DNA from: Candidatus Heimdallarchaeota archaeon
GTDB lineage: Archaea > Asgardarchaeota > Heimdallarchaeia > Heimdallarchaeales > Heimdallarchaeaceae
DNA: 32,000 nucleotides
Assembly (NCBI GenBank): GCA_030668875.1
Contig: DAOVER010000001.1
Span: forward strand, 1 to 32,000
Direction of reading: 5' to 3'
Shown: positions 4,723 through 26,629 of the stretch, one piece after another
How the letters are laid out: each line of letters begins with the position of its first letter
Position numbering within the stretch: the stretch's first letter is position 1
The notes under the pieces: model-generated
Database searches by the model: none
Told to the model about the DNA's origin: nothing
The model's input: the letters and a program-made list of their open reading frames with translations, nothing else
Program-made: the position numbers and the translations under genes

Positions 4723-6417
4723 ATGGTTTCAATAAAAACAAGTTATACAAAGATGAAAGAATTACTTGGGATAGATGTTACTATCGAAGAATTAGATGAT
4801 CTTCTAGCATTTGCAAAGTCAGAAATCGATGATTTTGTAGAAGAGGAAGATATGCTAGTAATTGACATAAAAACTAGTAACAGGCCTGATCTATGGTGTC
4901 CTGAGGGAATGATAAGAGAAATCAAAGGCATTCTTGAGCAAGAAGCTGGAATTCCTCAATATGAAGTCAAAAAAAGTGACTATAAAGTAGTTGTAGATTC
5001 AGCGCTTGCATCTACTCGTCCATACATCGCATGTGCTATAGCAAAGAATCTTGACCTAACTGATTATTCGATCAAACAGCTAATGCAACAGTCAGAGAAA
5101 ATTGATAACTCTTATGGAAGAAAACGAAAACGTTCCTCTATTGGAATGTATAACCTTTCAATGATTGAATCACCAATTGAATACAAGGTAATTGATAAAT
5201 CACACAAATTCGTGCCTTTAGAGCATGAAGAAGAAATGGACTTGCCAACAATATTGGAAGAACATGAGAAAGGGCTTGAATTTGGTGATATTGTGAAAGG
5301 ATACGGACATTACCCAATCCTTCTTTCAGCTAATGGTACAACTCTTTCTCTCCCTCCTGTGATAAATAGTAACGATGTAGGAAGAATAACTGAAGATACC
5401 AAAGAATTTCTCATTGAAGTAACTGGAACAAATTACGAAACAGTTAATGTTGTTCTCAATATACTATGTCAAACCATGGTGGAATATGGTTCAGATATCT
5501 ATAGTGTTGAGATAGTCTACCCTTCAGAAATCAGAAAAGAAAATGATATAACTCCACTTCTAGAGAAGGAAGAAATAACTGTTAATTTGGACAAGATTAA
5601 CAAATATCTAGGTGTCAAACTAACTTCTGATGAAGGAATAGAAAAATTAAGGAAAAGAAGATTTGAATGTAAAACCATTGGCAAGACCAATCTTGAAGTG
5701 AAAATTCCACCTTACCGAAAGGATATTTTACACTGGGTAGATATAGCAGAAGAAATTGCTATAGCTTTAGATTACAATAAAATCGGTGTAACAAAATGGA
5801 AAGTTATTACTAAAGGAGGGCTTCTACCAGAAACTGAAAGCGAAAATAAGGTGCGAAATATTCTAGTAGGCTCTGGAGGTATCGAGATATTCTCTAATAT
5901 ACTAACTGATCCAGAAATATTGACAACCAATGTTAATATGACGAAAGTAGATTTAGTCAACCTGCAAAATCCTGTTAGTTTAACATACAGTGTGTTAAGA
6001 GACAAACTTTTTCCTCTCTTAATCAGTGTTCTGTCAAAAAATACACATGAAACCTATCCTCAATCAATTTTTGAAGTTGGTGAGGTTGTTAAGATTCTAG
6101 GTAAAAGAGTTCTAACTCAGACGAATGCGTCTTATGGTTTTGCAGGAGCAGAGGCTAGCTTCGAAGATGTTCATAAGCGATTACACATGATGCTAGATCT
6201 GTTAGATACAGAGTACAAAATCGAATCGATATCACACCCAGCTTTTACAGAAGGGAGAAGTGGCAAAATAATAATTGCTGAAAAAGAATGTGGTATTATT
6301 GGAGAGATTCATCCTAGTGTGTTGGAGCTGAACCAAATTTGGGTTCCAGTTGTTGTCTTCGAAATCCAATTACCCTATATACCTACATTGAACTGTAAAA
6401 AGAAATTCACTGATTAA
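4723..6417 (+). CDS. pheT: Phenylalanine--tRNA ligase beta subunit (archaeal type)
   Basis: NRPDLWCPEGMIREIKG, RPYIACA, LSLPPVINS, PPYRKDILHWVDIAEEIAIA, NPVSLTYSVLR, GEIHPSVL. Directly follows pheS; SD aggtga. Confidence 0.97.
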   Translation: MVSIKTSYTKMKELLGIDVTIEELDDLLAFAKSEIDDFVEEEDMLVIDIKTSNRPDLWCPEGMIREIKGILEQEAGIPQYEVKKSDYKVVVDSALASTRPYIACAIAKNLDLTDYSIKQLMQQSEKIDNSYGRKRKRSSIGMYNLSMIESPIEYKVIDKSHKFVPLEHEEEMDLPTILEEHEKGLEFGDIVKGYGHYPILLSANGTTLSLPPVINSNDVGRITEDTKEFLIEVTGTNYETVNVVLNILCQTMVEYGSDIYSVEIVYPSEIRKENDITPLLEKEEITVNLDKINKYLGVKLTSDEGIEKLRKRRFECKTIGKTNLEVKIPPYRKDILHWVDIAEEIAIALDYNKIGVTKWKVITKGGLLPETESENKVRNILVGSGGIEIFSNILTDPEILTTNVNMTKVDLVNLQNPVSLTYSVLRDKLFPLLISVLSKNTHETYPQSIFEVGEVVKILGKRVLTQTNASYGFAGAEASFEDVHKRLHMMLDLLDTEYKIESISHPAFTEGRSGKIIIAEKECGIIGEIHPSVLELNQIWVPVVVFEIQLPYIPTLNCKKKFTD

Positions 6418-7366
6418 TCGGAAGTTTTGTCTTCTTCTTTTTCTTTTCTACTTTTTTCTCTTGTTTATCAAGTACTACTATTCTCTCCCAGACTTTATCC
6501 ATAATTTTTTTCAATGCCTCACCACTCTCGGATGTTTCAATTATTGGGATTTTCGCTTTCGTTGCTTCTTCAACAAGGTAAGTTTGAATATTCCTAATTT
6601 CAGAAAAGGCATCAATATACCGTTCAGATTTTCTAAATTCTACTTCGGTGCCTCTCGCTTTGATTCTTCTTTTATGTTCCTCTTTCTCTTCGAGATATAA
6701 GAGAATCATTATAACATGAGCTTCTGCTAATACTGAAGGATCTAGTATATTTGGTGCTAAGTGAACACCTTCAATGATTGAATTTTCTCTAGAATAAAGA
6801 GCAGTTTGAATTGCAGATTCTACTCCAACAATAACATGACGACATTGTTCCTCATATCCTACTATTGATTGTCTCAGAATAGGATTAATTTTAGGTTTCA
6901 ACATTTTGTAAGCTTCATAGCTGCTTGAATGAAGCTCTGGGATTAGTTTTGCTGAAATAGTTTGTCTAAGAACTTGTCTTATCATATCTGTTCCTATAAT
7001 GTGTGAGATTTCTAATCTTTGGGATAACTGTGAAGCTATAGTACTCTTTCCAATACCTGGAACTCCAGCAAGCAAAATGATAATTGGTTTATAACTTTGC
7101 TCTCCCTCAAATACGCTATATCTCTCTGCCATTTTAGGATCAAAATTATTAATTTCGGAAGTTATAATATGAACTAGCTTTTCTTTATCTATGGGATCTG
7201 AAGCCTCACTAACAATATGTTCCACTTTACTCGCTATTTCAAAAATGAGGTTGGAATCCATACCAATAGAATGTAAAGAAGTTGACAATATGCCCTTTGA
7301 GAAATACTCGTACCTATCCTTTCTAAGTCGAATTTTAAGGAAATTATCAAGTTGATCTACATTCAT
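6407..7366 (-). CDS. 2-phosphoglycerate kinase family protein (ATP-cone + P-loop), paralog 1
   Basis: N-terminal FSKGILSTSL ATP-cone-like segment, LLAGVPGIGKST Walker A, IIGTDMIRQVLR, PELHSSSY, IIEGVHLAP. Basic C-terminal tail. Confidence 0.85.
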   Translation of the reverse strand: MNVDQLDNFLKIRLRKDRYEYFSKGILSTSLHSIGMDSNLIFEIASKVEHIVSEASDPIDKEKLVHIITSEINNFDPKMAERYSVFEGEQSYKPIIILLAGVPGIGKSTIASQLSQRLEISHIIGTDMIRQVLRQTISAKLIPELHSSSYEAYKMLKPKINPILRQSIVGYEEQCRHVIVGVESAIQTALYSRENSIIEGVHLAPNILDPSVLAEAHVIMILLYLEEKEEHKRRIKARGTEVEFRKSERYIDAFSEIRNIQTYLVEEATKAKIPIIETSESGEALKKIMDKVWERIVVLDKQEKKVEKKKKKTKLPINQ

Positions 7367-7534: not shown

Positions 7535-8431
7535 ATGGAAGCAGAACGTCAAATATTTATCAAAGATAGAGACAAAAGATTATTTTCTCGAGGAATATTA
7601 GCTAAAAAACTTAGGTTGTTAGGAATTCCTTCTTCAACTGGTTATGAAATTTCTATTCAAGTATATAATGAGATCTCTAAACCTCAAGAAACAACCATTG
7701 AAAAAGAAGAACTTGATAACATTGTTTTTGATATTCTCGAATCCAATTATAACAAAGAATGCGCAGATAAGTATTTGCTTGTTGAAAGGTGGAAAACATC
7801 AAACATACCTTTATGGATTCTCATTGCGGGGGCAATAGGCGTTGGAAAAAGCACTCTATCACAGAAAATTGCTGGTGACCTTAACATTCAACATGTTGTA
7901 GGAACCGATGTAGTGAGAGACATTTTACGGAAAATATTATCAGTTGAAGTTATGCCAGAATTACATTCGCCCTCTTATAGTGCTTATAAGACTCTGCGAC
8001 CTATTTATAGTAGTAGATTTGAGGAAGTGATACTAGGTTTTGAAAATCATTCTAAATATGTTAATCTGGGTGTCGAAGCTGTACTTTCGAGAGCATCTAC
8101 TGAATCTGTATCTATCGTAATTGAAGGAGAACATCTTCTACCCGCTTTGCTTGATGAAGACATTCTCTCACAAACAAATGTATTATATATGACAATTTCA
8201 GTTCCCGACCCCTTGTTACATAAGGAAAATCTAAGTTCACAGTACACAAAAGAAAAGGATGTTTTAATTAGTCATTTTCATGATATAAGAAAAATACACG
8301 AACACATCGTTAGTGAAACACGAATTCGAAAGTTACCTATTGTTGAAACTAGTAAAGATTTAAACCCACTAGATACCGTAAGAAAACTTGTCGTAGACAA
8401 AATCGTTTCTATGGTTACAACTAAATCGTAA
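7535..8431 (+). CDS. 2-phosphoglycerate kinase family protein (ATP-cone + P-loop), paralog 2
   Basis: LFSRGILAKKL, LIAGAIGVGKST, VVGTDVVRDILR, PELHSPSY, IVIEGEHLLP. Colinear with the paralog at 6407-7366. Confidence 0.85.
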   Translation: MEAERQIFIKDRDKRLFSRGILAKKLRLLGIPSSTGYEISIQVYNEISKPQETTIEKEELDNIVFDILESNYNKECADKYLLVERWKTSNIPLWILIAGAIGVGKSTLSQKIAGDLNIQHVVGTDVVRDILRKILSVEVMPELHSPSYSAYKTLRPIYSSRFEEVILGFENHSKYVNLGVEAVLSRASTESVSIVIEGEHLLPALLDEDILSQTNVLYMTISVPDPLLHKENLSSQYTKEKDVLISHFHDIRKIHEHIVSETRIRKLPIVETSKDLNPLDTVRKLVVDKIVSMVTTKS

Positions 8432-9877: not shown

Positions 9878-10879
9878 ATGATCTCTATTGGCATTGAAAG
9901 CTCTGCAGATAAATTGGGAATAGGTATCATAACTGATACGGGTGATGTACTAGCTAATGTTAGAAGAACCTATAAACCACCACACGGTAGCGGAATCCAT
10001 CCAAGAGAAGCATCTGAATTCCATTCTTCTTATATTGCAGATGCAATAAAAGATGCATATATGGAAGCAAACCTTAAACCAAAAGATGTTGATTTGATTT
10101 CATTTACTAAAGGACCTGGTTTAGGACCCTGTTTAAGAGTAGGAGCTGTCGCTGCAAGAACACTTGCTTTGACTACAAGAAAGCCATTAATCGCTGTTAA
10201 TCATCCTATAGCTCATGTAGAAATAGGAAGATTGATTGGAGATTTGGATGACCCCGTTGTTCTCTATGTATCTGGGGGGAACACTCAAGTTATCGCTTAC
10301 TCCCATGGAAGATATCGCGTTTTTGGAGAGACTTTGGATATTCCAGTAGGTAATTGTTTAGACGTTTTCGGTAGAAATGCAGGTTTAAGTGATAAAAAGA
10401 TGCCAATGGGAAGAGCAATAGAATTAGAAGCAGAAAAAGGAACAGAGTACATACCTATTCCTTATGTAATCAAAGGTATGGATGTCTCATTCTCAGGAAT
10501 TCTAACTCATGTCACAAAACTTCTTCTGAGCAATAAGTACAAACTTACAGATTTATCCTATAGCTTGCAAGAGACAGTATTTGCGATGTTAGTTGAAGTA
10601 ACAGAAAGAGCCTTAGCTCACACTAAGAAATCTGAAGTTCTTGTTTGCGGTGGAGTAGCTTCAAACAAAAGATTGAAGGAAATGCTAAAGGATATGTCTT
10701 CTTCCCACGGGAATGGTGTAAAGTTCACGGGATTAGATGCAAATCTAGCAATAGATAATGGTGTTATGATAGCATGGTTAGGATTAATTATGTATAATTC
10801 TGGAAACAGAACAAAATTAAGCGATACACTTGTAGATCAACACTTCAGACCAGATGATGTAGTAGTTAATTGGAGATAG
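9878..10879 (+). CDS. kae1: tRNA N6-adenosine threonylcarbamoyltransferase Kae1 (KEOPS)
   Basis: IGIESSADK, GIHPREASEFH, GPGLGPCLRVG, VNHPIAHVEIG (HxxxH), YVSGGNTQV, GETLDI, FAMLVEVTERA, GGVASN, DNGVMIAW. Confidence 0.97.
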   Translation: MISIGIESSADKLGIGIITDTGDVLANVRRTYKPPHGSGIHPREASEFHSSYIADAIKDAYMEANLKPKDVDLISFTKGPGLGPCLRVGAVAARTLALTTRKPLIAVNHPIAHVEIGRLIGDLDDPVVLYVSGGNTQVIAYSHGRYRVFGETLDIPVGNCLDVFGRNAGLSDKKMPMGRAIELEAEKGTEYIPIPYVIKGMDVSFSGILTHVTKLLLSNKYKLTDLSYSLQETVFAMLVEVTERALAHTKKSEVLVCGGVASNKRLKEMLKDMSSSHGNGVKFTGLDANLAIDNGVMIAWLGLIMYNSGNRTKLSDTLVDQHFRPDDVVVNWR

Positions 10880-10881
10880 TT

Positions 10882-12198
10882 ATGTCCACTAATTCAGTTG
10901 CAATTGTGTTTGATATTCGCAAAAAGAACTTCTACAGTTTAACTTCTCTTATTGCGACTATTGATGGGGATACAAATTTAAAAGCCCTTGATCAAATAAT
11001 TACTGGAGACTTATCTAGTAATGATATTAAATCTCTCTTGAAGAAATATACTAAATTAATAATAGCTTACTCTTTTCGAACAAGTCAGTTAGAAGAAATC
11101 TATACAAAAATGAAAACATTCTATTCCTCACTTTCAACAGATGAAATACATAGGGTGACTTTCATCGCTGGAGGAAGTCATCCCACAGGTGACCCACTTA
11201 CAACATTGAAATTTGGCTTTGACTTCTCTTTTATAGGTGAAGCAGAATATTCCCTCCCCTTCTTCTTGAAAAGTTTTTTAGAGAAAGAGGACATTTATGA
11301 AACACCTGGTATCACTTTCTTGGAAAATGAAATTTCTTTATCTTCTACATCTAGACCGCTTCCTATAAATTTAGATGATTACCCCTTTCTATCAAAAAAG
11401 CGAAAACTATATCCCCCGCTCGAAATCACAAGAGGTTGTGGTTTTGCTTGCGCTTTTTGTCAAGTTCCAATGCTGTTCAAACATAGAATCCGTCATAGAT
11501 CTCCTGAGATAATTATAGAACTGGTAAAATGGATGGTAACAGAAAAATTGAATGACATTCGTTTTATCACACCAAATTCTTTTGGTTACATGTCAAAAAG
11601 TGCAAGATCAGTAAACCAAGAAGGTATAATGCATCTGTTAGAAGGTATACGGTCTATTAAGGGAATAAGAAACATTTTTTATGGAACATTTCCTGGAGAA
11701 GTAAGACCTGAAACTGTTTCTGAAGAGCTTTTAACAAAGATTAAACCTCTTATTACAAACAGACGAATTTCAATTGGTCTCCAATCAGGTAGTAATAAGG
11801 TATTAAGGGAAATTAGAAGAGGACACACGGTTGAAGAAGCTGTTTCTGCCATAGATATTTTACTTGCATCAGGATTTACACCAATAGTAGATATAATTGT
11901 AGGATTACCGGGGGCAACAGAAGATGATGAAGAACAAACAATTCAGGTCATTGAGGATTTAGTTCAAAAACAAGCAATAATTCGAGCTCATGTTTTCATG
12001 CCATTGCCTGGAACAGCGTTGGAAGATTCTATTTATCAACCGATTTTTCCAGAAATCAGAAAGAAACTAGGAAGACTAAGTACAATCGGTAAGATTGAAG
12101 GAAATTGGAATCAACAAGAATTATACGCAAAAAGAGCTTGGGAAATGATACAAGACATGCAATCAGTTTCTCCGTTGTCTAGAGAAGATAATCACTGA
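10882..12198 (+). CDS. B12-binding-domain radical SAM protein (MJ1487-like family)
   Basis: IAGGSHPTGDP...GFDFSFIGEAE (B12-binding-like), EITRGCGFACAFCQVP (CxxxCxxC), RHRS, DIRFITPN, GLQSGS...RGH. ATG at 10882 lies 2 nt after the kae1 stop. Confidence 0.88.
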   Translation: MSTNSVAIVFDIRKKNFYSLTSLIATIDGDTNLKALDQIITGDLSSNDIKSLLKKYTKLIIAYSFRTSQLEEIYTKMKTFYSSLSTDEIHRVTFIAGGSHPTGDPLTTLKFGFDFSFIGEAEYSLPFFLKSFLEKEDIYETPGITFLENEISLSSTSRPLPINLDDYPFLSKKRKLYPPLEITRGCGFACAFCQVPMLFKHRIRHRSPEIIIELVKWMVTEKLNDIRFITPNSFGYMSKSARSVNQEGIMHLLEGIRSIKGIRNIFYGTFPGEVRPETVSEELLTKIKPLITNRRISIGLQSGSNKVLREIRRGHTVEEAVSAIDILLASGFTPIVDIIVGLPGATEDDEEQTIQVIEDLVQKQAIIRAHVFMPLPGTALEDSIYQPIFPEIRKKLGRLSTIGKIEGNWNQQELYAKRAWEMIQDMQSVSPLSREDNH

Positions 12199-12868
12199 AA
12201 AGCTGTTCTTCATTTAGATGCCTACCTCTTGCTTCAACTTTTACAGCTCTTTTGAAAATGGTCTTGAAATTATTCACTGTCTCTTTGTATCCTTCTTGAA
12301 AAGCTAAGAAAAGCTCTCTACTATATTCGGTGTGAGTGCTTATGAAACACTTCTTAATTAGCAATATGTCTACTGCTTTATCTTCTATCGCGCTTGAAAA
12401 CTTACCAAGTCCGAAATCAATGAATACTAATTTAGTATCAAGTTCTAGAATGTTGCTAGTTGTTAAATCACCATGAATAATGTCATTATTATGCAATTTT
12501 CCTACTTGTTTACCTATTTCTTTTACAACATTCAGTTTTTTCTGTAATTCTACTTCGCTATCTAAAATATCTTTGACTAATATCCCATCAATATCCTCCA
12601 TAATTATGGTTGTGTTAACTATATCAATCTCAAATACATAAGGTGTAAGCACCCCACTTTTTTTTGCGGATATTAACAATTTTGATTCTGTTACAGTTCT
12701 ACTTTTTCTCAATTCTACATCGAGGGGAGCTATTCGATATTTCTTTGGAATTCTGACTTTTTTCATTGCTTTATAATCTAACCATTCACTTTTACTAAGA
12801 ATTGCCTCTGCTCCCCATTTATCTATGCTAAGATTATCTTTAGAACTATTCTCAGTATGTTCAGCCAT
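12179..12868 (-). CDS. bud32: KEOPS complex kinase/ATPase Bud32 (standalone, not fused to Kae1)
   Basis: GAEAIL, KVRIPKKYR..LD..LRKSRT..E, IIHGDLTTSNI, FIDFGLG, EDKAVD, VEARGR. Confidence 0.95.
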   Translation of the reverse strand: MAEHTENSSKDNLSIDKWGAEAILSKSEWLDYKAMKKVRIPKKYRIAPLDVELRKSRTVTESKLLISAKKSGVLTPYVFEIDIVNTTIIMEDIDGILVKDILDSEVELQKKLNVVKEIGKQVGKLHNNDIIHGDLTTSNILELDTKLVFIDFGLGKFSSAIEDKAVDILLIKKCFISTHTEYSRELFLAFQEGYKETVNNFKTIFKRAVKVEARGRHLNEEQLFSDYLL

Positions 12869-13979: not shown

Positions 13980-14936
13980 TTAGAAACCCATGGTATCGAG
14001 AATGTGCTTGATAATCTTGAATTTATATGCAACATTCATTACATCATTCACATTTGTAGTCATACCTACTAAGATTTTACCTTCTGAACAACCTTCAACT
14101 ATGATTTGTACAACTCCTGCATTAAGGAATTTAATCTCTTCTTTTGACTGTATCATTTCATATATAACACTGGGATATTTGGTTAAAGTCTCTAGAACAT
14201 AGATGATTTTCTTTTCCTCAAGATTTCCTGCGTAAAGTTGCCCCATTGTTCCTTGCTCTTTTGGAAAAATATAAGCTGAAGCTGAAGGTGAATCACAGCT
14301 TCTTATGGAGGAAAATAACAGTGATGTAATTGCTCTTTTATTTGCTTCAGCTAAGATTTCTTGTGTCATTTCAGCTACAGGTATCATGGGGACAGTTTCA
14401 TATGGCTTTATTTTTTCAAATGTTTCAACTCTCGTTTCAGAAGCATTCGTAACAGGATATCTTACTTTTGGAACAAGTACAATTTTCGGTCTTTCAATTC
14501 CAAATCTATCAAAAATGCCTTCTATTTTATTACGTATAGAAGAGAAACCTTCTGCCATTATACTTTTACAAGTGAGTTCTAACAGATCTGTTGGGTCTTC
14601 TGCATTAAGAGAGTCAAGAAGAGTATTCCCTAGCACTTCAATATAATTTCCAATTAGAGGACGAAGTTCTATCGAAAAATTTTCTACACGAGAAACAAAT
14701 AAAATAGTTAAATCAATGAAAGTAACATACGTTGCTCTGAATCTTCCTCTAAAAATTGTAATTTCACTATATCTTCTAACCCACTGATAAAACTCTATTG
14801 GATGAATAAAGTATCTATTTACCTCAATTCTTTCTATTTCACTCTTTATTTTATCAATAGTGAAAATGTTAGCTCCTTTTGTATCATATATTATAATCGC
14901 TACCAAGGGGCTAATGTCAATCTCTGGAAATAGCAT
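13980..14936 (-). CDS. Hypothetical protein: N-terminal longin-like + C-terminal roadblock/LC7-like domain (paralog A)
   Basis: ATG at 14936 is preferred (ORF track extends to 15011). N-terminal VAIIIYDTKG..; C-terminal domain ...SASAYIF...LETLTKYPSVI...EIKFLNAGVVQIIVEG...ILVGMT aligns with the ORFs at 15078 and 16326. Confidence 0.65.
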   Translation of the reverse strand: MLFPEIDISPLVAIIIYDTKGANIFTIDKIKSEIERIEVNRYFIHPIEFYQWVRRYSEITIFRGRFRATYVTFIDLTILFVSRVENFSIELRPLIGNYIEVLGNTLLDSLNAEDPTDLLELTCKSIMAEGFSSIRNKIEGIFDRFGIERPKIVLVPKVRYPVTNASETRVETFEKIKPYETVPMIPVAEMTQEILAEANKRAITSLLFSSIRSCDSPSASAYIFPKEQGTMGQLYAGNLEEKKIIYVLETLTKYPSVIYEMIQSKEEIKFLNAGVVQIIVEGCSEGKILVGMTTNVNDVMNVAYKFKIIKHILDTMGF

Positions 14937-15077
14937 AAGACCTCTGTCTAAAATTATGCAATTCTTTGCTAATAAGCTTATTGGACAACTTTTGTATGTG
15001 AATAATTGCATAATTAGTCAACGGAACCAAAGAAATATTTTTAGATTTTAGTATTATAATGAATATGAGGTTATGTA

Positions 15078-15659
15078 ATGAGTAAGAATTCTAGTAATTC
15101 AAAACCACCATCAACAAAGATATCTTCCAGAAAGAGAAAAACTGTAAAGAAAGATATATTTGTAGAAATGGAAGAAATTGCTTACGAGGCTTTAAATATC
15201 TCAAAACGCAAACTAAAGAGTGGACAATATCTTAAAGATTTTCTAAATCAAACTTCATCAAAAGATTCTGTTCTCGAAGCAATTAAAGTTACTATCGATG
15301 CTCTATTAGATAGCATAGCTTCTGATTTGGACTCACTTTCAGCAGCGGCTTTAGTTCCACACCCTGAGAGTGAAGAACCAAAAGCAATTGTTAGAGGACC
15401 TTTAAATCGAGAGATTGTAAAACAAATTTTAACTATATTTAGAAAATACCCTCCTGTTATTAATGACCTTCTTGGGTCTGATGACGAATTAAAAGTTCTT
15501 GATACTGGAATTGGTTATGTAGTCTTAGAAAATTGTCAGAAGGATAATTATTTGGTTGGGATAGTTAAAAAACAAAAAGATGTTGATGAATTATCTAGAA
15601 AACTAAGACATGTACAGCAAGTAGTTGTTGACAATACTTTACTTCTTGATGGATTGTAG
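15078..15659 (+). CDS. Hypothetical protein: basic N-terminal extension + roadblock/LC7-like domain (paralog B)
   Basis: IDALLDSIASDLDSLSAAALV (roadblock-like helix1-strand1), ILTIFRKYPPVI, ELKVLDTGIGYVVLE, YLVGIVK, terminal helix. Confidence 0.7.
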   Translation: MSKNSSNSKPPSTKISSRKRKTVKKDIFVEMEEIAYEALNISKRKLKSGQYLKDFLNQTSSKDSVLEAIKVTIDALLDSIASDLDSLSAAALVPHPESEEPKAIVRGPLNREIVKQILTIFRKYPPVINDLLGSDDELKVLDTGIGYVVLENCQKDNYLVGIVKKQKDVDELSRKLRHVQQVVVDNTLLLDGL

Positions 15660-15664
15660 AATGT

Positions 15665-16318
15665 TTAACGTCTATCAGTCAAACTTTTATTGCAATTCTC
15701 ACAATAATCCTGTTCTAGATGTACTTCCTTGAAACAGTTCCAACATCTCTTTAAAGATGTTTCTTGTTTTGAATAATCATGAATTATCTTCTCAATTTCA
15801 TTAGCAATTTCAAGCATTGCTTTGTACCTATTAGACTTCGCATATGAGAATAATTTAGTTAATGGATTGTGAAATATCACAGCTAGAACAGCTAATACAA
15901 CAGAAGAAATTCCAACTAGTAGTAATGCTTGAGCATTTTGCCAATATACTGTGATTAAGACAATTAATACACTTAACAACGCAATTAAAATGGTTACCGA
16001 AGCCATTCTAACTCCAAACAGTCGCTTGTTTAATAATGAGTTGAAGAATTGTTTAACACTTGAATTTTTTGAAATAAAATCAAGTTTAAGGAAATTTCCT
16101 TCCACAGAATCTTGAATCCTTACTACAACTTTCTGTAGTTGTATTTTTGTAATGAATAATAGTGTCTTATTTTCTTGTAATCTAATATCTGGATATTTAT
16201 ATTTCAACTGTTTAATAATATGCATGAAAAGATTTGATGTATTCTTAATGTCTGTACTGATATCTTTTGAAAATGTTATGTGTTCGTGTTGTACTGCGAA
16301 AACGATTGTACTCACCAT
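15665..16318 (-). CDS. Two-TM membrane protein with C-terminal zinc ribbon
   Basis: TM pair VTILIALLSVLIVLITVYW and ALLLVGISSVVLAVLAVIF; C-terminal CWNC-x10-CENC. Starts 7 nt downstream of the 16326-17393 stop. Confidence 0.75.
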   Translation of the reverse strand: MVSTIVFAVQHEHITFSKDISTDIKNTSNLFMHIIKQLKYKYPDIRLQENKTLLFITKIQLQKVVVRIQDSVEGNFLKLDFISKNSSVKQFFNSLLNKRLFGVRMASVTILIALLSVLIVLITVYWQNAQALLLVGISSVVLAVLAVIFHNPLTKLFSYAKSNRYKAMLEIANEIEKIIHDYSKQETSLKRCWNCFKEVHLEQDYCENCNKSLTDRR

Positions 16319-16325
16319 CCGTTTT

Positions 16326-17393
16326 TCAGAATGTGGATATCAAAAACTCAGATATCATTACCTTAACAAGTTTCATTCTTTTAGCTATAATGGGTATTTC
16401 TTCCCTGTTTTTTGTAATACTTACAAGAATTCCATTACTAGATCCCTCTAAAATAACTACTCCATCTCCTGCATCTATAGTTTTTTCATCAGATTCTGTT
16501 TCCAAAGTTTGTTTCACAATTTCAGGATATTTTGAGAGGATTCCTAAAACAAACTCTCCATGCTTTTCGGACATACCGAATGTGATGGTTTCTAAATCTC
16601 CTTTTTCCCCTGTATAAACAAAACATACACCTGTTTTTGTTGATAATCCTTTAACGATAGAGGATAAAACCCTCTCAACTGATAGCCTCTTTGTTTCTTC
16701 CAATAGTTGTTGTGTTAGTTCTACTTTGTTTGAATCCTTAACTAATACTGTTTTCTTATCTGATTTTTGACCAATGAATTCAAGGAGACCTCCAACATCT
16801 GTAGATGCTGTTGAGTCTGCTGCTTGGGCAGAACTAGATGTTGCTGCAGACTGTGAATGATTTTGTTCCATTTCTACGTTTTTCTCTACTTTTGTTGAAA
16901 CTGGTTCCCCTGTACTAATTTGCTCAACCATCGATGTTTCAACTTGTTGAGGTTTTTTAGTTGGATAATAGTCGTATTTGACTTGACTTGATGCTCTTTC
17001 GGAGATTAGGCTACCTAATCGTTTAATCAAAGCTGTCTGTGATTTTGGTTCCATTTTATCGATAGCTCCATATTCACGCAACTGATCGACAAGTTTATTC
17101 TTTATAATTTCAATTATACTTTCTGCAATCTGATCTTCAATATCTGGTAGAAACATGCAGCTTAATATTATATTAAAAAAAAGATGATAATCGACTCTAA
17201 ATATCTCGTTTTTGAGTGTTATAGCTTGTGATTTTCTTAATTCTTCCCTTGTTTTTGCACTTGTATCAATTACTTGAAAAACTGTTGAAAATGCAGTTTT
17301 TTGGTTAATTACTTTATCGAAAATCATGTCCTCATCTAATGTAAAGAGGCTAAAACCTACAAACTTATTCCAAGGTAAATCGAACTCACTCAT
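16326..17393 (-). CDS. Hypothetical protein: N-terminal longin-like domain, Ser/Thr/Ala-rich linker, C-terminal roadblock/LC7-like domain (paralog C)
   Basis: Strong SD gtgaggt upstream. FVGFSLFT..; linker QSAATSSSAQAADSTAS; C-terminal VLGILSKYPEIV...EKTIDAGDGVVILEG...ILVSIT. Confidence 0.7.
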   Translation of the reverse strand: MSEFDLPWNKFVGFSLFTLDEDMIFDKVINQKTAFSTVFQVIDTSAKTREELRKSQAITLKNEIFRVDYHLFFNIILSCMFLPDIEDQIAESIIEIIKNKLVDQLREYGAIDKMEPKSQTALIKRLGSLISERASSQVKYDYYPTKKPQQVETSMVEQISTGEPVSTKVEKNVEMEQNHSQSAATSSSAQAADSTASTDVGGLLEFIGQKSDKKTVLVKDSNKVELTQQLLEETKRLSVERVLSSIVKGLSTKTGVCFVYTGEKGDLETITFGMSEKHGEFVLGILSKYPEIVKQTLETESDEKTIDAGDGVVILEGSSNGILVSITKNREEIPIIAKRMKLVKVMISEFLISTF

Positions 17394-17493
17394 GTTTCAT
17401 ACCTCACATGCTTATGTTAGTAGTTATCTTCTATTTCTCGAACCATATACAACAATCAATATTTCTCTTCTATTAAATAGCTTACGGCAATTA

Positions 17494-18615
17494 CTATTTC
17501 TTCTTTTTCTTTTTCTTCTTTTTATCATCTTTTTGTTGTTGTCTAGCAATTTTCTTCCATTTTTTGAGGTTTCTATTTGATTCTTGTCCAAAAACTACAG
17601 CTGAATACTTCCTTCCTTCAGTTTCACCTAAACCTCTTATAGTTAGATTTTCTTCTTCTTCCCTTTTCTTTGTTTCTTGGAGCATCTGTTGAATTATCTC
17701 TTCCCTTCTCTTCATCTTAGCTTGAAGTTCAGGATCAATTTCTACTTCTGGTTCGGGAACTACTTCTGGTTCGGGAACTACTTCTGACTCAAGAATTTTT
17801 TTCGTGGCAATCTTTTCTTCAATTATTGCAATTTCTTTGATTAAAGAGATATCTTCGGTTTCTAATTCCTTTTCCTGTACTTCTACATGTGGAATCTCTT
17901 CTTCTGCAATGGGAACACTTGATGCTTCCTCAACGAATACAAACTTATGAACATCCTCTGGAATATTTTCTGGTTTGATTTGAATATCTTCATCAATCAC
18001 AGGTTCAGTGACTATAGGAGCAGACGAATCTATTGTTTCAATTTCAGTACTAAGATGATCAAGGATTTCTAGTTGTTCAGTTCCTATTGCCTCAGCTTCT
18101 TGAATCTCTTGTTCTGTTTTCAGTTTTTCCGAATCTATTTCTATTTTAGGTTCAGTCACAGAAGACTCTACTGTAGATTCAGCTGGTTGAGTTAATAATT
18201 TTTTAAGAGCTGTTTCTTTTTCATCAGAAGGTAGTGGGATTTTTTCTTGTTCAATTATTTCTTTAATATCTTCCAAATTTGTGTCAGAAATAATCTCTTC
18301 TACATCTTCTCCTGATACTGCTTTAGCTAAACCGATAGTCACTTCTTCAAGCTCTCTAGATCTCTTTATTTGCTCTTCAACAACACCTTCTTCAATGACT
18401 GGCTCTACTTCTTCAACAACACTTTCTTCAATGACTGGCTCTACTTCTTCAACAACACTTTCTTCAATAGTTACCTCTTGTTTTTTCAATTCATCTGCTT
18501 GCGTTGCTTCTTCTTTGGCTTTAGTCTTTGCTAAATCATACAAATATTGGGCAAATCTAGATATATTCTTCTTGTCCCATTCAAGCACTTCGTTCTCTTT
18601 TCCGTTGGAATTCAT
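17494..18615 (-). CDS. Glu-rich low-complexity, probably disordered protein with poly-Lys C-terminus
   Basis: 373-aa ORF dominated by E/V/I/P, with internal tandem repeats; ends KKWKK...DDKKKKKKKKK. Confidence 0.75.
   Translation of the reverse strand: MNSNGKENEVLEWDKKNISRFAQYLYDLAKTKAKEEATQADELKKQEVTIEESVVEEVEPVIEESVVEEVEPVIEEGVVEEQIKRSRELEEVTIGLAKAVSGEDVEEIISDTNLEDIKEIIEQEKIPLPSDEKETALKKLLTQPAESTVESSVTEPKIEIDSEKLKTEQEIQEAEAIGTEQLEILDHLSTEIETIDSSAPIVTEPVIDEDIQIKPENIPEDVHKFVFVEEASSVPIAEEEIPHVEVQEKELETEDISLIKEIAIIEEKIATKKILESEVVPEPEVVPEPEVEIDPELQAKMKRREEIIQQMLQETKKREEEENLTIRGLGETEGRKYSAVVFGQESNRNLKKWKKIARQQQKDDKKKKKKKKK
17742..17786. repeat. 18-bp tandem repeat, ~2.5 copies (encodes VVPEPE)
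   Basis: ctacttctggttcgggaa at 17742 and 17760, partial at 17778. Confidence 0.9.
18374..18468. repeat. 36-bp tandem repeat, ~2.6 copies (encodes EESVVEEVEPVI)
   Basis: tcttcaacaacac(c/t)ttcttcaatgactggctctact at 18374 and 18410, partial at 18446. Confidence 0.9.
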
Positions 18616-18804
18616 AAGGTAACCACTTATCTAGATAATTCTAAATCCTTATTCTTACTTCTTTTCTTGTCTTATTAAATTTTCTTAAGCTTCTAAGATA
18701 TAATTTATAGAAAGCCTCATCTATATTAAATCTATTTGCAAATAGGAAAATAGATACAGGGAAAAATAAACTAAACTTTAATAAGATATTTTAAGGAATA
18801 TAGT

Positions 18805-19851
18805 ATGATGAGTGATTCCCTTAAACCATTGTTAATTCGATTAGTGGATTCCTTTTCCTATTATTTGATAAATGAAGCAAGGATTAGCACTGGTGAAGAG
18901 GTTATGCAATCAAAAATCAATGATATTGCATATAGAAAAGCAAGTGGGAGATTTGGAGAAGTATATGTCATTGACGTGTTTTACAGTTCTGAACATGGGA
19001 ACCATAAAAGCAAATTAGCTATTAAATTCATTGACAATATTGAAGATATAATCACGGAAATAAAAAACACCGCATTTCTTGAAAAGCATTTTTCAACTCG
19101 ATCTATAGTTAAGATTCCTCGTTATATTTATGTAAATTTGAAAAAACCTACTTATATTGCATACGAAGGAATGACTGGAATCAACTATGAAGATGCTCAT
19201 TTAGTTTCTGATAAAAGCTTCTGGGCAGGATATATACTATCAATCATACATGCAGGTAAGCCAAAACCGGTGATTACTGATATCTATGAAGAATTATACA
19301 GAAGATTAATATTATCTGTGTTTGGTGGATCCGAAGAAGAACATAGTATAATGGAAAAATCCAAAATCTTGATCGAAATGATTAAAGCTTCGCAAGGAGG
19401 TAGTGATTCCTTTGGTGACTATCATCAAAGCAATCTTATGGTTCGAGTAGCTCCAGAGGGTGAGGTTGTAAGTATTGCATTAATAGATCCAACTTTCTGG
19501 ATGCAAGGATCATTTGATAGATTTGAAGACATAGGAACATTTTTTGGAAGACAATCATTTCTTGAGTATCGTGTAACAAAATTGCTCACATCAACGATAA
19601 ACGACATACAGCAATTTATTCAAGGTTATAATGTTCACTTGAAAGAAGTAAATGGTGCTTCCTTGGAGGAAATGTATCCAAAAGGGTATCCTATCGATTT
19701 TTTTCTAGCAACATGGGCGATGATGGATGTCTTAGATAAAACAAATAGTTTCAATATAGATGCAAATCATCCAGACATTATCCTGTTAAGAGCATTAGCC
19801 CATTATCTGTTAACAGAACAACCAATAGGAAAAGAAGTGAACAATTTTTAA
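18805..19851 (+). CDS. Protein-kinase-like fold phosphotransferase (APH/atypical kinase family)
   Basis: Gly loop ASGRFGEVY, LAIKF (VAIK-like Lys), helix-C Glu in ITEIKN, hinge IAYEGMTG, catalytic FGDYHQSN, Mg-binding LIDP. Confidence 0.8.
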   Translation: MMSDSLKPLLIRLVDSFSYYLINEARISTGEEVMQSKINDIAYRKASGRFGEVYVIDVFYSSEHGNHKSKLAIKFIDNIEDIITEIKNTAFLEKHFSTRSIVKIPRYIYVNLKKPTYIAYEGMTGINYEDAHLVSDKSFWAGYILSIIHAGKPKPVITDIYEELYRRLILSVFGGSEEEHSIMEKSKILIEMIKASQGGSDSFGDYHQSNLMVRVAPEGEVVSIALIDPTFWMQGSFDRFEDIGTFFGRQSFLEYRVTKLLTSTINDIQQFIQGYNVHLKEVNGASLEEMYPKGYPIDFFLATWAMMDVLDKTNSFNIDANHPDIILLRALAHYLLTEQPIGKEVNNF

Positions 19852-19902
19852 TCCAATTAAGGGGAAAAAATTTATAGAACTAATACAATGTAATTTAGTA
19901 TA

Positions 19903-20745
19903 ATGATTGATTATAATTCAGAAATAATGATATCAGCGTATGTCATTGCTAAGATTTTAGAGGTAGATGCTTTAGATACTTCGAAAGAATCTGCTGGGGT
20001 TCTCTTGGGTTATGTCGATGAAGCAACACAGAAGCTAATCATAACTGATTTTGATACTGGAAAACAAAGACAAACATCGACATTTGTTGTTCTAGATGAT
20101 GAAGCTCTTGTTCAGATTGTTACAGATTTGCAGAATAGAGATAGAAAAGAATCAATTGTTGGATGGGCACATACGCATCCTTCCTATGGTTGTTTCCTTT
20201 CTGGTACAGACAAGGGAACACAAAGAATCTATCAAAATCTCTTCTCCAAAGCAGTAGCTTTAGTGATTGATCCTTCAAAATATTATCAGTCTCAAGAGAG
20301 TTCTGATTTAGAAATTCAGTTTTTTAGATTAATAGATGATATTGATTACAAAGCAATACCTTACCAGCTATTTTTTGATGAACATACCAAACACGTTTCC
20401 AACTTAGCCAAGGTTGACCTCAAATGGGAATTACCTAAATTGACACAAGAAGTTGTTCAACTTTTGCATAAAAAATTTGAAACGATTGTCACTCCATCCT
20501 TAATTGATCAAGATAAGAAATTACTTCATGGACTTGTTGATATACTAAGCGAATCTCACGAAACACTATCGGAAGCTGGGGAAGAAAAAGAAATTCTTGT
20601 GACTATCGATAAAAAACTACACTCAATAAATCAGAATGTTAACAGAATTTACAATGAGGAGACAAATAATATTTATTCGGTAATGAATGTCGTAGCTGTA
20701 ATTATATTGGCCATATCTTGGTTTTTGATTGCTTATTTTGTGTAA
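19903..20745 (+). CDS. MPN+/JAMM metalloisopeptidase (Rpn11/CSN5/AMSH-like) with C-terminal TM tail anchor
   Basis: ESAGVLLG plus IVGWAHTHPSYGCFLSGTD (H-x-H-x7-S-x2-D at 20170-20211) and AVALVIDP. C-terminus VMNVVAVIILAISWFLIAYFV. Confidence 0.88.
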   Translation: MIDYNSEIMISAYVIAKILEVDALDTSKESAGVLLGYVDEATQKLIITDFDTGKQRQTSTFVVLDDEALVQIVTDLQNRDRKESIVGWAHTHPSYGCFLSGTDKGTQRIYQNLFSKAVALVIDPSKYYQSQESSDLEIQFFRLIDDIDYKAIPYQLFFDEHTKHVSNLAKVDLKWELPKLTQEVVQLLHKKFETIVTPSLIDQDKKLLHGLVDILSESHETLSEAGEEKEILVTIDKKLHSINQNVNRIYNEETNNIYSVMNVVAVIILAISWFLIAYFV

Positions 20746-26254: not shown

Positions 26255-26629
26255 TTATCGAGGTTTAATTGAAATCATCGTACATCCAATGAATGTAATT
26301 AAACCAGATGCTGCTGCAATCATTATTGTCGCAATACTAGCAATTACAGGTTGAAGAGCTTCAAGATCATTTTGCCAAACAGCTAAGTATACTGTAAAAA
26401 TAATCAGAGCTGCAATCATTAATCCTGTGAAAACAAGATATGCGTTTTTTTCTTCAGATTTGAATACTCTTGAAACTGAGCCTAGTGAAAAACCACCTAA
26501 TGTTCCTATTCCAAGATAAAACAAAAGCCACCAGAATTGTGTAGTTAATTCAACGATGGTAATTGTAACGCCAGCGATTCCTAAGGCAACTAATATTCCA
26601 CCAATGAATGATATAGGTCTAGCACTCAT
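26255..26629 (-). CDS. Small four-TM membrane protein
   Basis: Four hydrophobic helices in 124 aa; SD-like ggag upstream. Confidence 0.7.
   Translation of the reverse strand: MSARPISFIGGILVALGIAGVTITIVELTTQFWWLLFYLGIGTLGGFSLGSVSRVFKSEEKNAYLVFTGLMIAALIIFTVYLAVWQNDLEALQPVIASIATIMIAAASGLITFIGCTMISIKPR

Follow-up and report, generated by a model that had tools for sequence, protein, structure and literature searches.

Two neighboring gene units, a longin/roadblock set and a kinase-JAMM pair, proposed for a locus of Heimdallarchaeaceae

In eukaryotes, the GTPase regulators that serve trafficking and nutrient sensing are built around longin/roadblock platforms. The tri-longin Rab guanine nucleotide exchange factors (RabGEFs), namely Mon1-Ccz1, Fuzzy-Inturned, and HPS1-HPS4, are of the multidomain longin/roadblock type, and the known ones are heterodimers of two paralogues. 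Ragulator (LAMTOR1-5) and Rag combine several paralogous roadblock domains with an extended, largely disordered, membrane-anchored scaffold. MglB/MglC and the Asgard roadblock proteins are dimeric platforms for small GTPases (PMC10933270). Asgard archaea are already known to have dozens of longin/roadblock domains (PMC10933270, PMC12962969), and roadblock domains occur in forty Asgard clusters of orthologous genes (AsCOGs), many of them not eukaryote-specific (PMC12962969), so that another Asgard longin/roadblock set is in itself unsurprising. Herein, we analyzed the first 32,000 nt of contig DAOVER010000001.1 of Candidatus Heimdallarchaeota archaeon (family Heimdallarchaeaceae; this whole stretch is called the window, and coordinates are window positions unless a contig or locus is named), in which three longin/roadblock-type proteins (A, B, and C) are encoded next to a Zn-ribbon membrane protein, an acidic protein, a kinase, and a JAMM protein.

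We favor, with a probability of about 0.6, the reading that these seven genes are two evolutionary units which have become neighbors in this genus, rather than one seven-gene system. Unit 1 would be a longin/roadblock platform and unit 2 a kinase-JAMM pair. The seven genes are as follows.

13980-15011, minus strand: protein A, 343 aa as the open reading frame (ORF)
15078-15659, plus strand: protein B, 193 aa
15665-16318, minus strand: Zn-ribbon membrane protein, 217 aa
16326-17393, minus strand: protein C, 355 aa
17494-18615, minus strand: acidic protein, 373 aa
18805-19851, plus strand: predicted APH-type kinase, 348 aa
19903-20745, plus strand: JAMM protein, 280 aa

A/B and acidic/kinase are divergent pairs, while acidic-C-Zn-ribbon and kinase-JAMM are same-strand runs, the Zn-ribbon gene lying 7 bp downstream of C. 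This layout, with its coordinates and strands, had been given in a first-pass annotation of the sequence and was found complete. Because the orthologues of A begin at Met26 of the window ORF, the start of A was revised to 14936, which probably is the true start and gives a protein of 318 aa.

The gene order outside the family carries the first part of the argument. The kinase and the JAMM gene form an older, order-wide pair, usually beside 2-phosphoglycerate-kinase-like (2PGK-like) genes. A kinase orthologue was found in 39 of the 40 genomes searched; this orthologous subfamily is limited to a single Heimdall order, and a paralogous subfamily is patchy across the phylum. In another family of the order (f3), 11 loci were examined, and in every one of them the kinase gene either adjoined the JAMM gene or had a single gene between. 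In f3, in family f4, and in one genus of Heimdallarchaeaceae (g10), the kinase has 2PGK-like neighbors (one or two such genes in f3 and f4), and in f3 and g10 these stand beside the JAMM gene too (loci L038-L046, L050, L081, and L101). Hidden Markov models of A, B, C, the Zn-ribbon protein, and the acidic protein had no match in the 27 kinase loci outside the family. The window has its own divergent pair of 2PGK-like P-loop paralogues, located ~10 kb from kinase-JAMM.

6407-7366, minus strand: 2PGK-like P-loop protein
7535-8431, plus strand: 2PGK-like P-loop protein

These two proteins matched NCBIfam NF003259 at 2e-74 and 2e-69, under its equivalog cutoff, as well as Pfam AAA_18 and an ATP-cone.

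Unit 1, consisting of the acidic protein, C, B, and A, with the Zn-ribbon protein added in some genera, is confined to Heimdallarchaeaceae. This family includes, besides the metagenome-assembled genome (MAG) studied here, the two complete genomes of 'Ca. Heimdallarchaeum' PR6 and PM71 and the MAG AB_125, and five genera were compared, the genus of the window (g1) and g10 to g13. Within g1 the window is fully colinear over the entire 32 kb, so that synteny inside the genus is uninformative; the identity there was 57-79% for all seven genes except those of the Zn-ribbon and acidic proteins. The orders in the other genera were as follows, AIRS standing for the AIR-synthase-family gene.

g13: JAMM-kinase-acidic-C-B-A-AIRS
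g12: FolP-JAMM-kinase-acidic-C-B-A-ABC ATPase
g11: AIRS-B-acidic-C-kinase, with A not found (one genome)
g10: acidic-C-Zn-ribbon-B-A, a five-gene block with different flanks on both sides

Acidic-C-B-A were together in all five genera, except that A was not found in the single g11 genome. A Zn-ribbon gene turned up in g1 and g10 only. In g10, kinase-JAMM lies on the same contig ~38 kb from the five-gene block, directly beside a 2PGK-like gene. A profile of the domain common to A, B, and C recovered the trio in 28 of the 29 family genomes and only single weak matches elsewhere. The synteny check across Heimdall genomes that had been proposed points to two separate sets, acidic-C-B-A and kinase-JAMM, and lends no support to a seven-gene unit.

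Adjacency was also counted as cases kept over cases evaluable in the four other genera of the family. C-acidic, in which the acidic gene is directly upstream of C on the same strand, was kept in 4/4, A-B and acidic-kinase in 3/4 each, and kinase-JAMM in 3/3. Unrelated flanking pairs were kept as often, with 3/3 each for Kae1-radical SAM, radical SAM-Bud32, and Bud32-AIRS, and 2/2 each for AAA22-gene g25, gene g28-RING, and RING-glutamine synthetase, indicating that adjacency inside the family cannot separate function from inherited order.

A, B, and C have a C-terminal domain of ~130 aa in common, with 27-28% identity between the paralogues. In hhalign, the orthologue sets of A and C were linked through the C-terminal domain alone (98.2% probability, E 2.7e-14), and the method gave no link between their N-domains. 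None of the three proteins had a Pfam or NCBIfam match. The 13 orthologues of A and 9 of C likewise had no Pfam match, and at E up to 1 no Robl_LC7, Fuz_longin, or Intu_longin appeared among them. When 1.84 billion representative proteins were searched exhaustively with a profile, 10 came up at E up to 1e-3, indicating a sequence orphan; those 10 appear to be mainly the orthologue clusters of A, B, and C plus a distant 334 aa paralogue. The sole sequence signal toward roadblock/LC7 (PF03259) was a weak profile match to CvnB5 (E 0.047-0.23), and the seven Robl_LC7 matches in the genome all fell in genes other than A, B, and C.

The 334 aa protein is a distant fourth paralogue of the A/C type without a Pfam match, encoded elsewhere in this genome (G000:C15:7158-8162, locus L062) and also in other genera. 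Its gene stands head-to-head with that of a GAF-PAS histidine kinase.

The fold of A was examined in an AlphaFold2 model with a predicted local distance difference test score (pLDDT) of 75. The model has an N-terminal domain of the order β-β-α-β-β-β-α (residues 13-145), a disordered linker, and a C-terminal domain of the order α-β-β-α-β-β-β-α (residues 192-316). In a Foldseek search with A at whole length, subunits of Mon1, Ccz1, HPS1, Fuzzy, and Inturned were at the top (E 4e-6 to 2e-4), followed by LAMTOR, MglB/MglC, and Asgard Roadblock2. In VIA-align, an alignment independent of Foldseek, the C-domain matched the third longin domain of Mon1 (LD3) best, with a Z score of 10.7, then MglC (10.4), the C-terminal domain of LokiRagO (9.7), and MglB and CvnB5 (9.2 each), with Asgard Roadblock2 also in the range of 9-10.7, while the N-domain matched AP-3 sigma (8.4), the roadblock protein MP1 (8.2), the VAMP7 longin domain (7.9), and synbindin (7.8). 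An ESM Atlas search of A agreed with the folds found by Foldseek and VIA-align; the fold of A additionally matched ligand-binding domains of the GAF/IclR type (Z 8-9). The AlphaFold2 model and the three fold searches of A thus predict a roadblock fold for its C-domain, to be extended to B and C by homology, and a longin-like fold for its N-domain.

For C, the AlphaFold2 model (pLDDT 55) has the same order of elements as A and a disordered linker of ~80 aa, suggesting that the N-terminal domain of C is probably longin-like as well. B has a polybasic N-terminal tail of ~60 aa rich in Ser, Thr, and Asn (isoelectric point, pI, of the first 60 residues 10.1; 14 Lys and Arg), which is followed by one domain of the predicted roadblock fold. 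It is the best conserved of the three, with 57-79% identity across the family.

How this set compares with the described systems can now be stated. Like the tri-longin RabGEFs, A and C are multidomain proteins of the longin/roadblock type, and both the best whole-length Foldseek matches of A and the top match of its C-domain come from that group. However, A and C were modeled with two globular domains and a disordered linker instead of three domains, the TM-scores of A were low (0.2-0.27), the Pfam models Fuz_longin and Intu_longin gave no match, and the N-domain of A fits AP-3 sigma, MP1, and VAMP7 as well as any tri-longin (TLD) domain. Because two defining features fail, the three domains and the sequence models, the A/B/C set should not be filed under the tri-longin RabGEFs. 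With MglB/MglC and the Asgard roadblock proteins (MK-D1 and Thorarchaeota Roadblock, and the C-terminal domain of LokiRag) it shares the predicted α-β-β-α-β-β-β-α fold, at Z 9-10.4. Unlike them, A, B, and C have no Robl_LC7 match and belong to an orphan family, and in A and C an additional N-terminal domain precedes the roadblock domain, longin-like by prediction in A and probably so in C. The likeness to Ragulator and Rag lies in several paralogous roadblock domains and in the LAMTOR2/3 and Rag C-terminal domains among the fold matches of A; the candidate scaffold at this locus, on the other hand, is the 373 aa acidic protein with a poly-lysine tail, which has no similarity to LAMTOR1, and no Rag gene is adjacent.

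This acidic protein contains 26% Asp and Glu, has a pI of 4.5, and is largely disordered. It had no match in Pfam or NCBIfam. An alignment of its orthologues revealed five conserved short islands, including KRREEIIQQML...YSAVVFGQES..KKWK. The Zn-ribbon protein consists of an N-terminal domain of ~100 aa, hydrophobic stretches at about residues 100-125 and 128-150, and a C-terminal CxxC...CxxC arrangement with weak matches to Pfam DZR and Zn_ribbon_15. Its orthologues are 18-26% identical, as against 57-79% for the neighboring genes, and yet C192, C195, C206, C209 and the two hydrophobic segments are kept throughout, indicating a protein that evolves much faster than its neighbors. The string KYKYP had suggested that its N-terminal domain might be a fourth domain of the A/B/C type; this candidate was rejected, since the string is not conserved in the orthologues and hhalign gave a probability of 0.2%. 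The first-pass annotation had named a roadblock/longin trio, a Zn-ribbon membrane protein, an acidic protein, a kinase, and a tail-anchored JAMM protein. The trio (from hhalign, AlphaFold2, Foldseek, and VIA-align), the Zn-ribbon protein with its two hydrophobic segments and invariant cysteines, the acidic protein, and the JAMM protein all bore closer inspection, and the kinase did so in part, being a kinase-fold enzyme with the catalytic set but not a classical protein kinase.

The JAMM protein matched Pfam JAB at E 4.6e-12 (46.2 bits, against a cutoff of 22.5). Its motif, HTHPSYGCFLSGTD, begins at residue 90, with Glu29 upstream. HxHx7Sx2D is intact in all 14 orthologues, which come from two families, and in all 14 the most hydrophobic 19-mer is at the extreme C-terminus. 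The closest solved protein was the Rpn11-like protein of Caldiarchaeum (6fjv, E 3.8e-23), followed by eukaryotic Rpn11 at ~1e-15. By these sequence features the protein is an Rpn11-like JAMM/MPN+ metalloprotease with a predicted helical middle region and a C-terminal tail anchor. It thus shares the intact JAMM motif with CsRpn11 (Caldiarchaeum subterraneum; PDB 6fjv, PMC6043591) and with eukaryotic Rpn11/CSN5, its nearest solved sequences, but differs from them in a helical extension of ~130 aa and a conserved C-terminal transmembrane helix, and its gene lies outside the ubiquitin operon, paired with that of an APH-type kinase. We found no description of a tail-anchored archaeal Rpn11 in the open-access literature.

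Two ubiquitin-like (PF00240) genes are present in the genome, on other contigs. One of these contigs also has a second JAB/MPN gene, at a distance of ~3 kb from a ubiquitin-like one (G000:C80:2837-3184 and 6281-6442). This locus, which is separate from the gene of the tail-anchored JAMM protein, probably represents the canonical ubiquitin operon of archaea.

The kinase of the window had no match in the sequence searches of Pfam, NCBIfam, and PDB. Nevertheless, K74, E85, D205, N210, and D228 were invariant in 17 orthologues, down to 27% identity, and 9 of the 17 matched Pfam APH (PF01636), with a best E of 5.6e-7. A profile of the kinase gave only a marginal match in PDB, to methylthioribose (MTR) kinase 2pyw, and its Atlas neighbors were clusters of APH, choline kinase, and fructosamine kinase, at 0.97-0.99. 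The families nearest to it are mostly small-molecule kinases. Its conserved residues make up a full catalytic set, and the protein is probably a phosphotransferase of the APH type and not a classical protein kinase. Like the APH/choline-kinase/MTR-kinase family, it has the kinase fold, the Lys, the Glu, the HGD-type Asp...Asn, and the Asp of IDxx; the protein of the window itself, on the other hand, falls below Pfam detection, and its orthologous subfamily does not extend beyond the one Heimdall order. In the open-access literature searched, no order-wide pair made up of an APH-type kinase and a membrane-anchored Rpn11-like protease was found.

A type II/IV secretion ATPase was considered as a general partner of the kinase-JAMM pair and was rejected as lineage-specific, since it lies between JAMM and kinase only in the genera g3 and g8. 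The inserted protein is FlaI/PilB-like and 515 aa long (L038:8062-9606; also in L039, L043, L044, and L045), with a T2SSF-type membrane gene nearby. In one genome of family f3, a gene 2 kb from the kinase (L038:12735-14033) encodes a 433 aa protein with an N-terminal longin domain (weak match to Pfam Fuz_longin_1, E 3.5e-4) and a many-pass membrane region.

The folds, the motifs, the homology of A, B, and C, and the gene order are results of the analysis; what follows on the assembly, the GTPase partner, and the membrane hold of unit 1 and on the substrates of unit 2 is inference. Most likely, A and C, and perhaps B, would pair through their roadblock and longin sheets to give a hetero-oligomeric platform, by analogy with all characterized longin/roadblock systems (MglB-MglA, Ragulator-Rag, TRAPP, and Mon1-Ccz1). 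The role of such a platform would be to dock or to regulate a small GTPase whose gene is elsewhere in the genome, in which 38 Ras-superfamily matches were found. The acidic disordered protein may serve as the scaffold through its conserved short motifs. The complex would be kept at the membrane by two basic tails, the poly-lysine one of the acidic protein and the polybasic one of B, and in the genera that have it also by the Zn-ribbon protein. For unit 2, the tail-anchored Rpn11-like isopeptidase probably removes ubiquitin-like modifiers at the membrane.

Complex formation was addressed by structure prediction for A+C, in which ipSAE was 0.33, against 0.00 for the best control. In these runs the partner pLDDT was at least 65 and the agreement at least 5% of contacts. 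Among the reference cases, 58 of 80 solved complexes passed the ipSAE mark, compared with 2 of 110 mismatched pairs; passes scoring 0.60 or less, however, included only 7 of the 80 solved complexes but both of the mismatched pairs that passed. The multimer prediction suggested along with the annotation has thus given a weak pass for the A+C pair.

Several points weigh against the two-unit reading with its GTPase platform. The weak pass of A+C may reflect mere resemblance to solved roadblock dimers, the fold matches of the N-domain of A are middling (Z about 8), and the model of C is poor, too poor for a fold search. No GTPase gene was found on the contig of the window when the genome was searched for the Ras superfamily. 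In addition, the kinase adjoins acidic-C in four of the five genera despite an internal inversion in g11 and changed flanks in g12 and g13, so that within this family the two units may have a functional link. As for the missing neighbor GTPase, it says little, because Asgard small GTPase genes generally lie outside the operons of their roadblock/longin genes (PMC10933270).

If that link is taken to its full extent, all seven genes would be one membrane signaling module, as the first-pass annotation had proposed, with a Zn-ribbon-tethered roadblock/longin complex controlled by the kinase and by JAMM removal of a ubiquitin-like modifier. The contiguity of the seven genes in g1 speaks for it, as does the kinase-acidic adjacency, which survived local rearrangement in g11, g12, and g13; in g12 and g13 the breaks are at the borders of the block (AIRS-A and JAMM-CofE) and not inside. 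Both the JAMM and the Zn-ribbon proteins are predicted to be membrane-bound, ubiquitin-like proteins are encoded in the genome, and a RING ligase gene is in the window. Yet kinase-JAMM occurs across the order without the other five genes, the two sets are ~38 kb apart in g10, three of the five genera yielded no Zn-ribbon gene, unrelated pairs (Bud32-AIRS, AAA22-g25, and RING-glutamine synthetase) stay together no less often than those of the module, and the kinase is closest to small-molecule kinases. The claim of a single system finds no support in this evidence, and we regard such a module as quite unlikely.

A different objection concerns the role given to A, B, and C. Their fold may serve ligand sensing or an adaptor function instead of GTPase control, in which case the set would be a lineage-specific expansion without a eukaryote-like role, beside unrelated neighbors. 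In line with this, GTPase genes are lacking next to the trio and on the whole contig, and canonical Robl_LC7 genes exist elsewhere in the genome, one of them beside a GTPase. The matches to GAF/IclR-type domains fit it as well, as do the occurrence of roadblock domains as common prokaryotic domains (PMC12962969) and the PAS/GAF histidine kinase beside the distant fourth paralogue. But the best whole-length matches of A were subunits of GTPase regulators (Mon1, Ccz1, HPS1, and Fuzzy), MglB/MglC, LAMTOR, and Rag C-terminal domains are among its best matches by domain, and the absent neighbor GTPase is uninformative for the reason given above. We consider this reading unlikely, though it deserves some weight. 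In the opposite direction, A-C could be a GTPase regulator in the form of a 'di-longin' heterodimer, and as such an archaeal survivor related to the ancestor of the tri-longin RabGEFs (Mon1-Ccz1, BLOC-3, and CPLANE), with B and the acidic poly-lysine protein as accessory, membrane-recruiting subunits; in Heimdallarchaeaceae, the kinase encoded next to it and the tail-anchored Rpn11-like protease would tune its activity at the membrane. This we put forward as a long shot. No paper joining the tri-longin RabGEFs with Asgard homologues was found in the open-access literature.

The two-unit reading means that the seven genes are not to be treated as one operon-like system. What is new in unit 1 is an orphan subfamily with a predicted two-domain build of longin plus roadblock, whose best whole-length structural matches are Mon1/Ccz1-type RabGEF subunits, and a fixed A/B/C trio with a conserved acidic disordered partner. 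It provides a small, defined protein set for asking whether Asgard longin/roadblock proteins form Ragulator-like or TLD-like complexes. Unit 2, the order-wide pair of kinase and tail-anchored JAMM protein, points to ubiquitin-like deconjugation at the archaeal membrane.

Elsewhere in the genome, a canonical Robl_LC7 gene directly adjoins a small GTPase gene (G000:C69:2815-3701) and resembles a pair of the MglA/MglB type, indicating that classical roadblock-GTPase pairs exist in this genome.

The flanks of the seven genes had been described as metabolic and tRNA genes. The metabolic part stands, with an AIR-synthase-family gene on the left and CofE-like and FolP genes on the right. No tRNA gene was detected in the window by ARAGORN; beyond the AIR-synthase-family gene lie instead the tRNA-modification genes Bud32, radical SAM, and Kae1. 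The radical-SAM gene sits between kae1 and bud32 (9878-12868), a position kept in all three other genera that could be checked (g11, g12, and g13). A RING ligase gene is also within the window. Further to the right, 26255-26629 encodes a 124 aa protein without a Pfam match, of which g12 has a tandem duplicate (L057:8334-9077).

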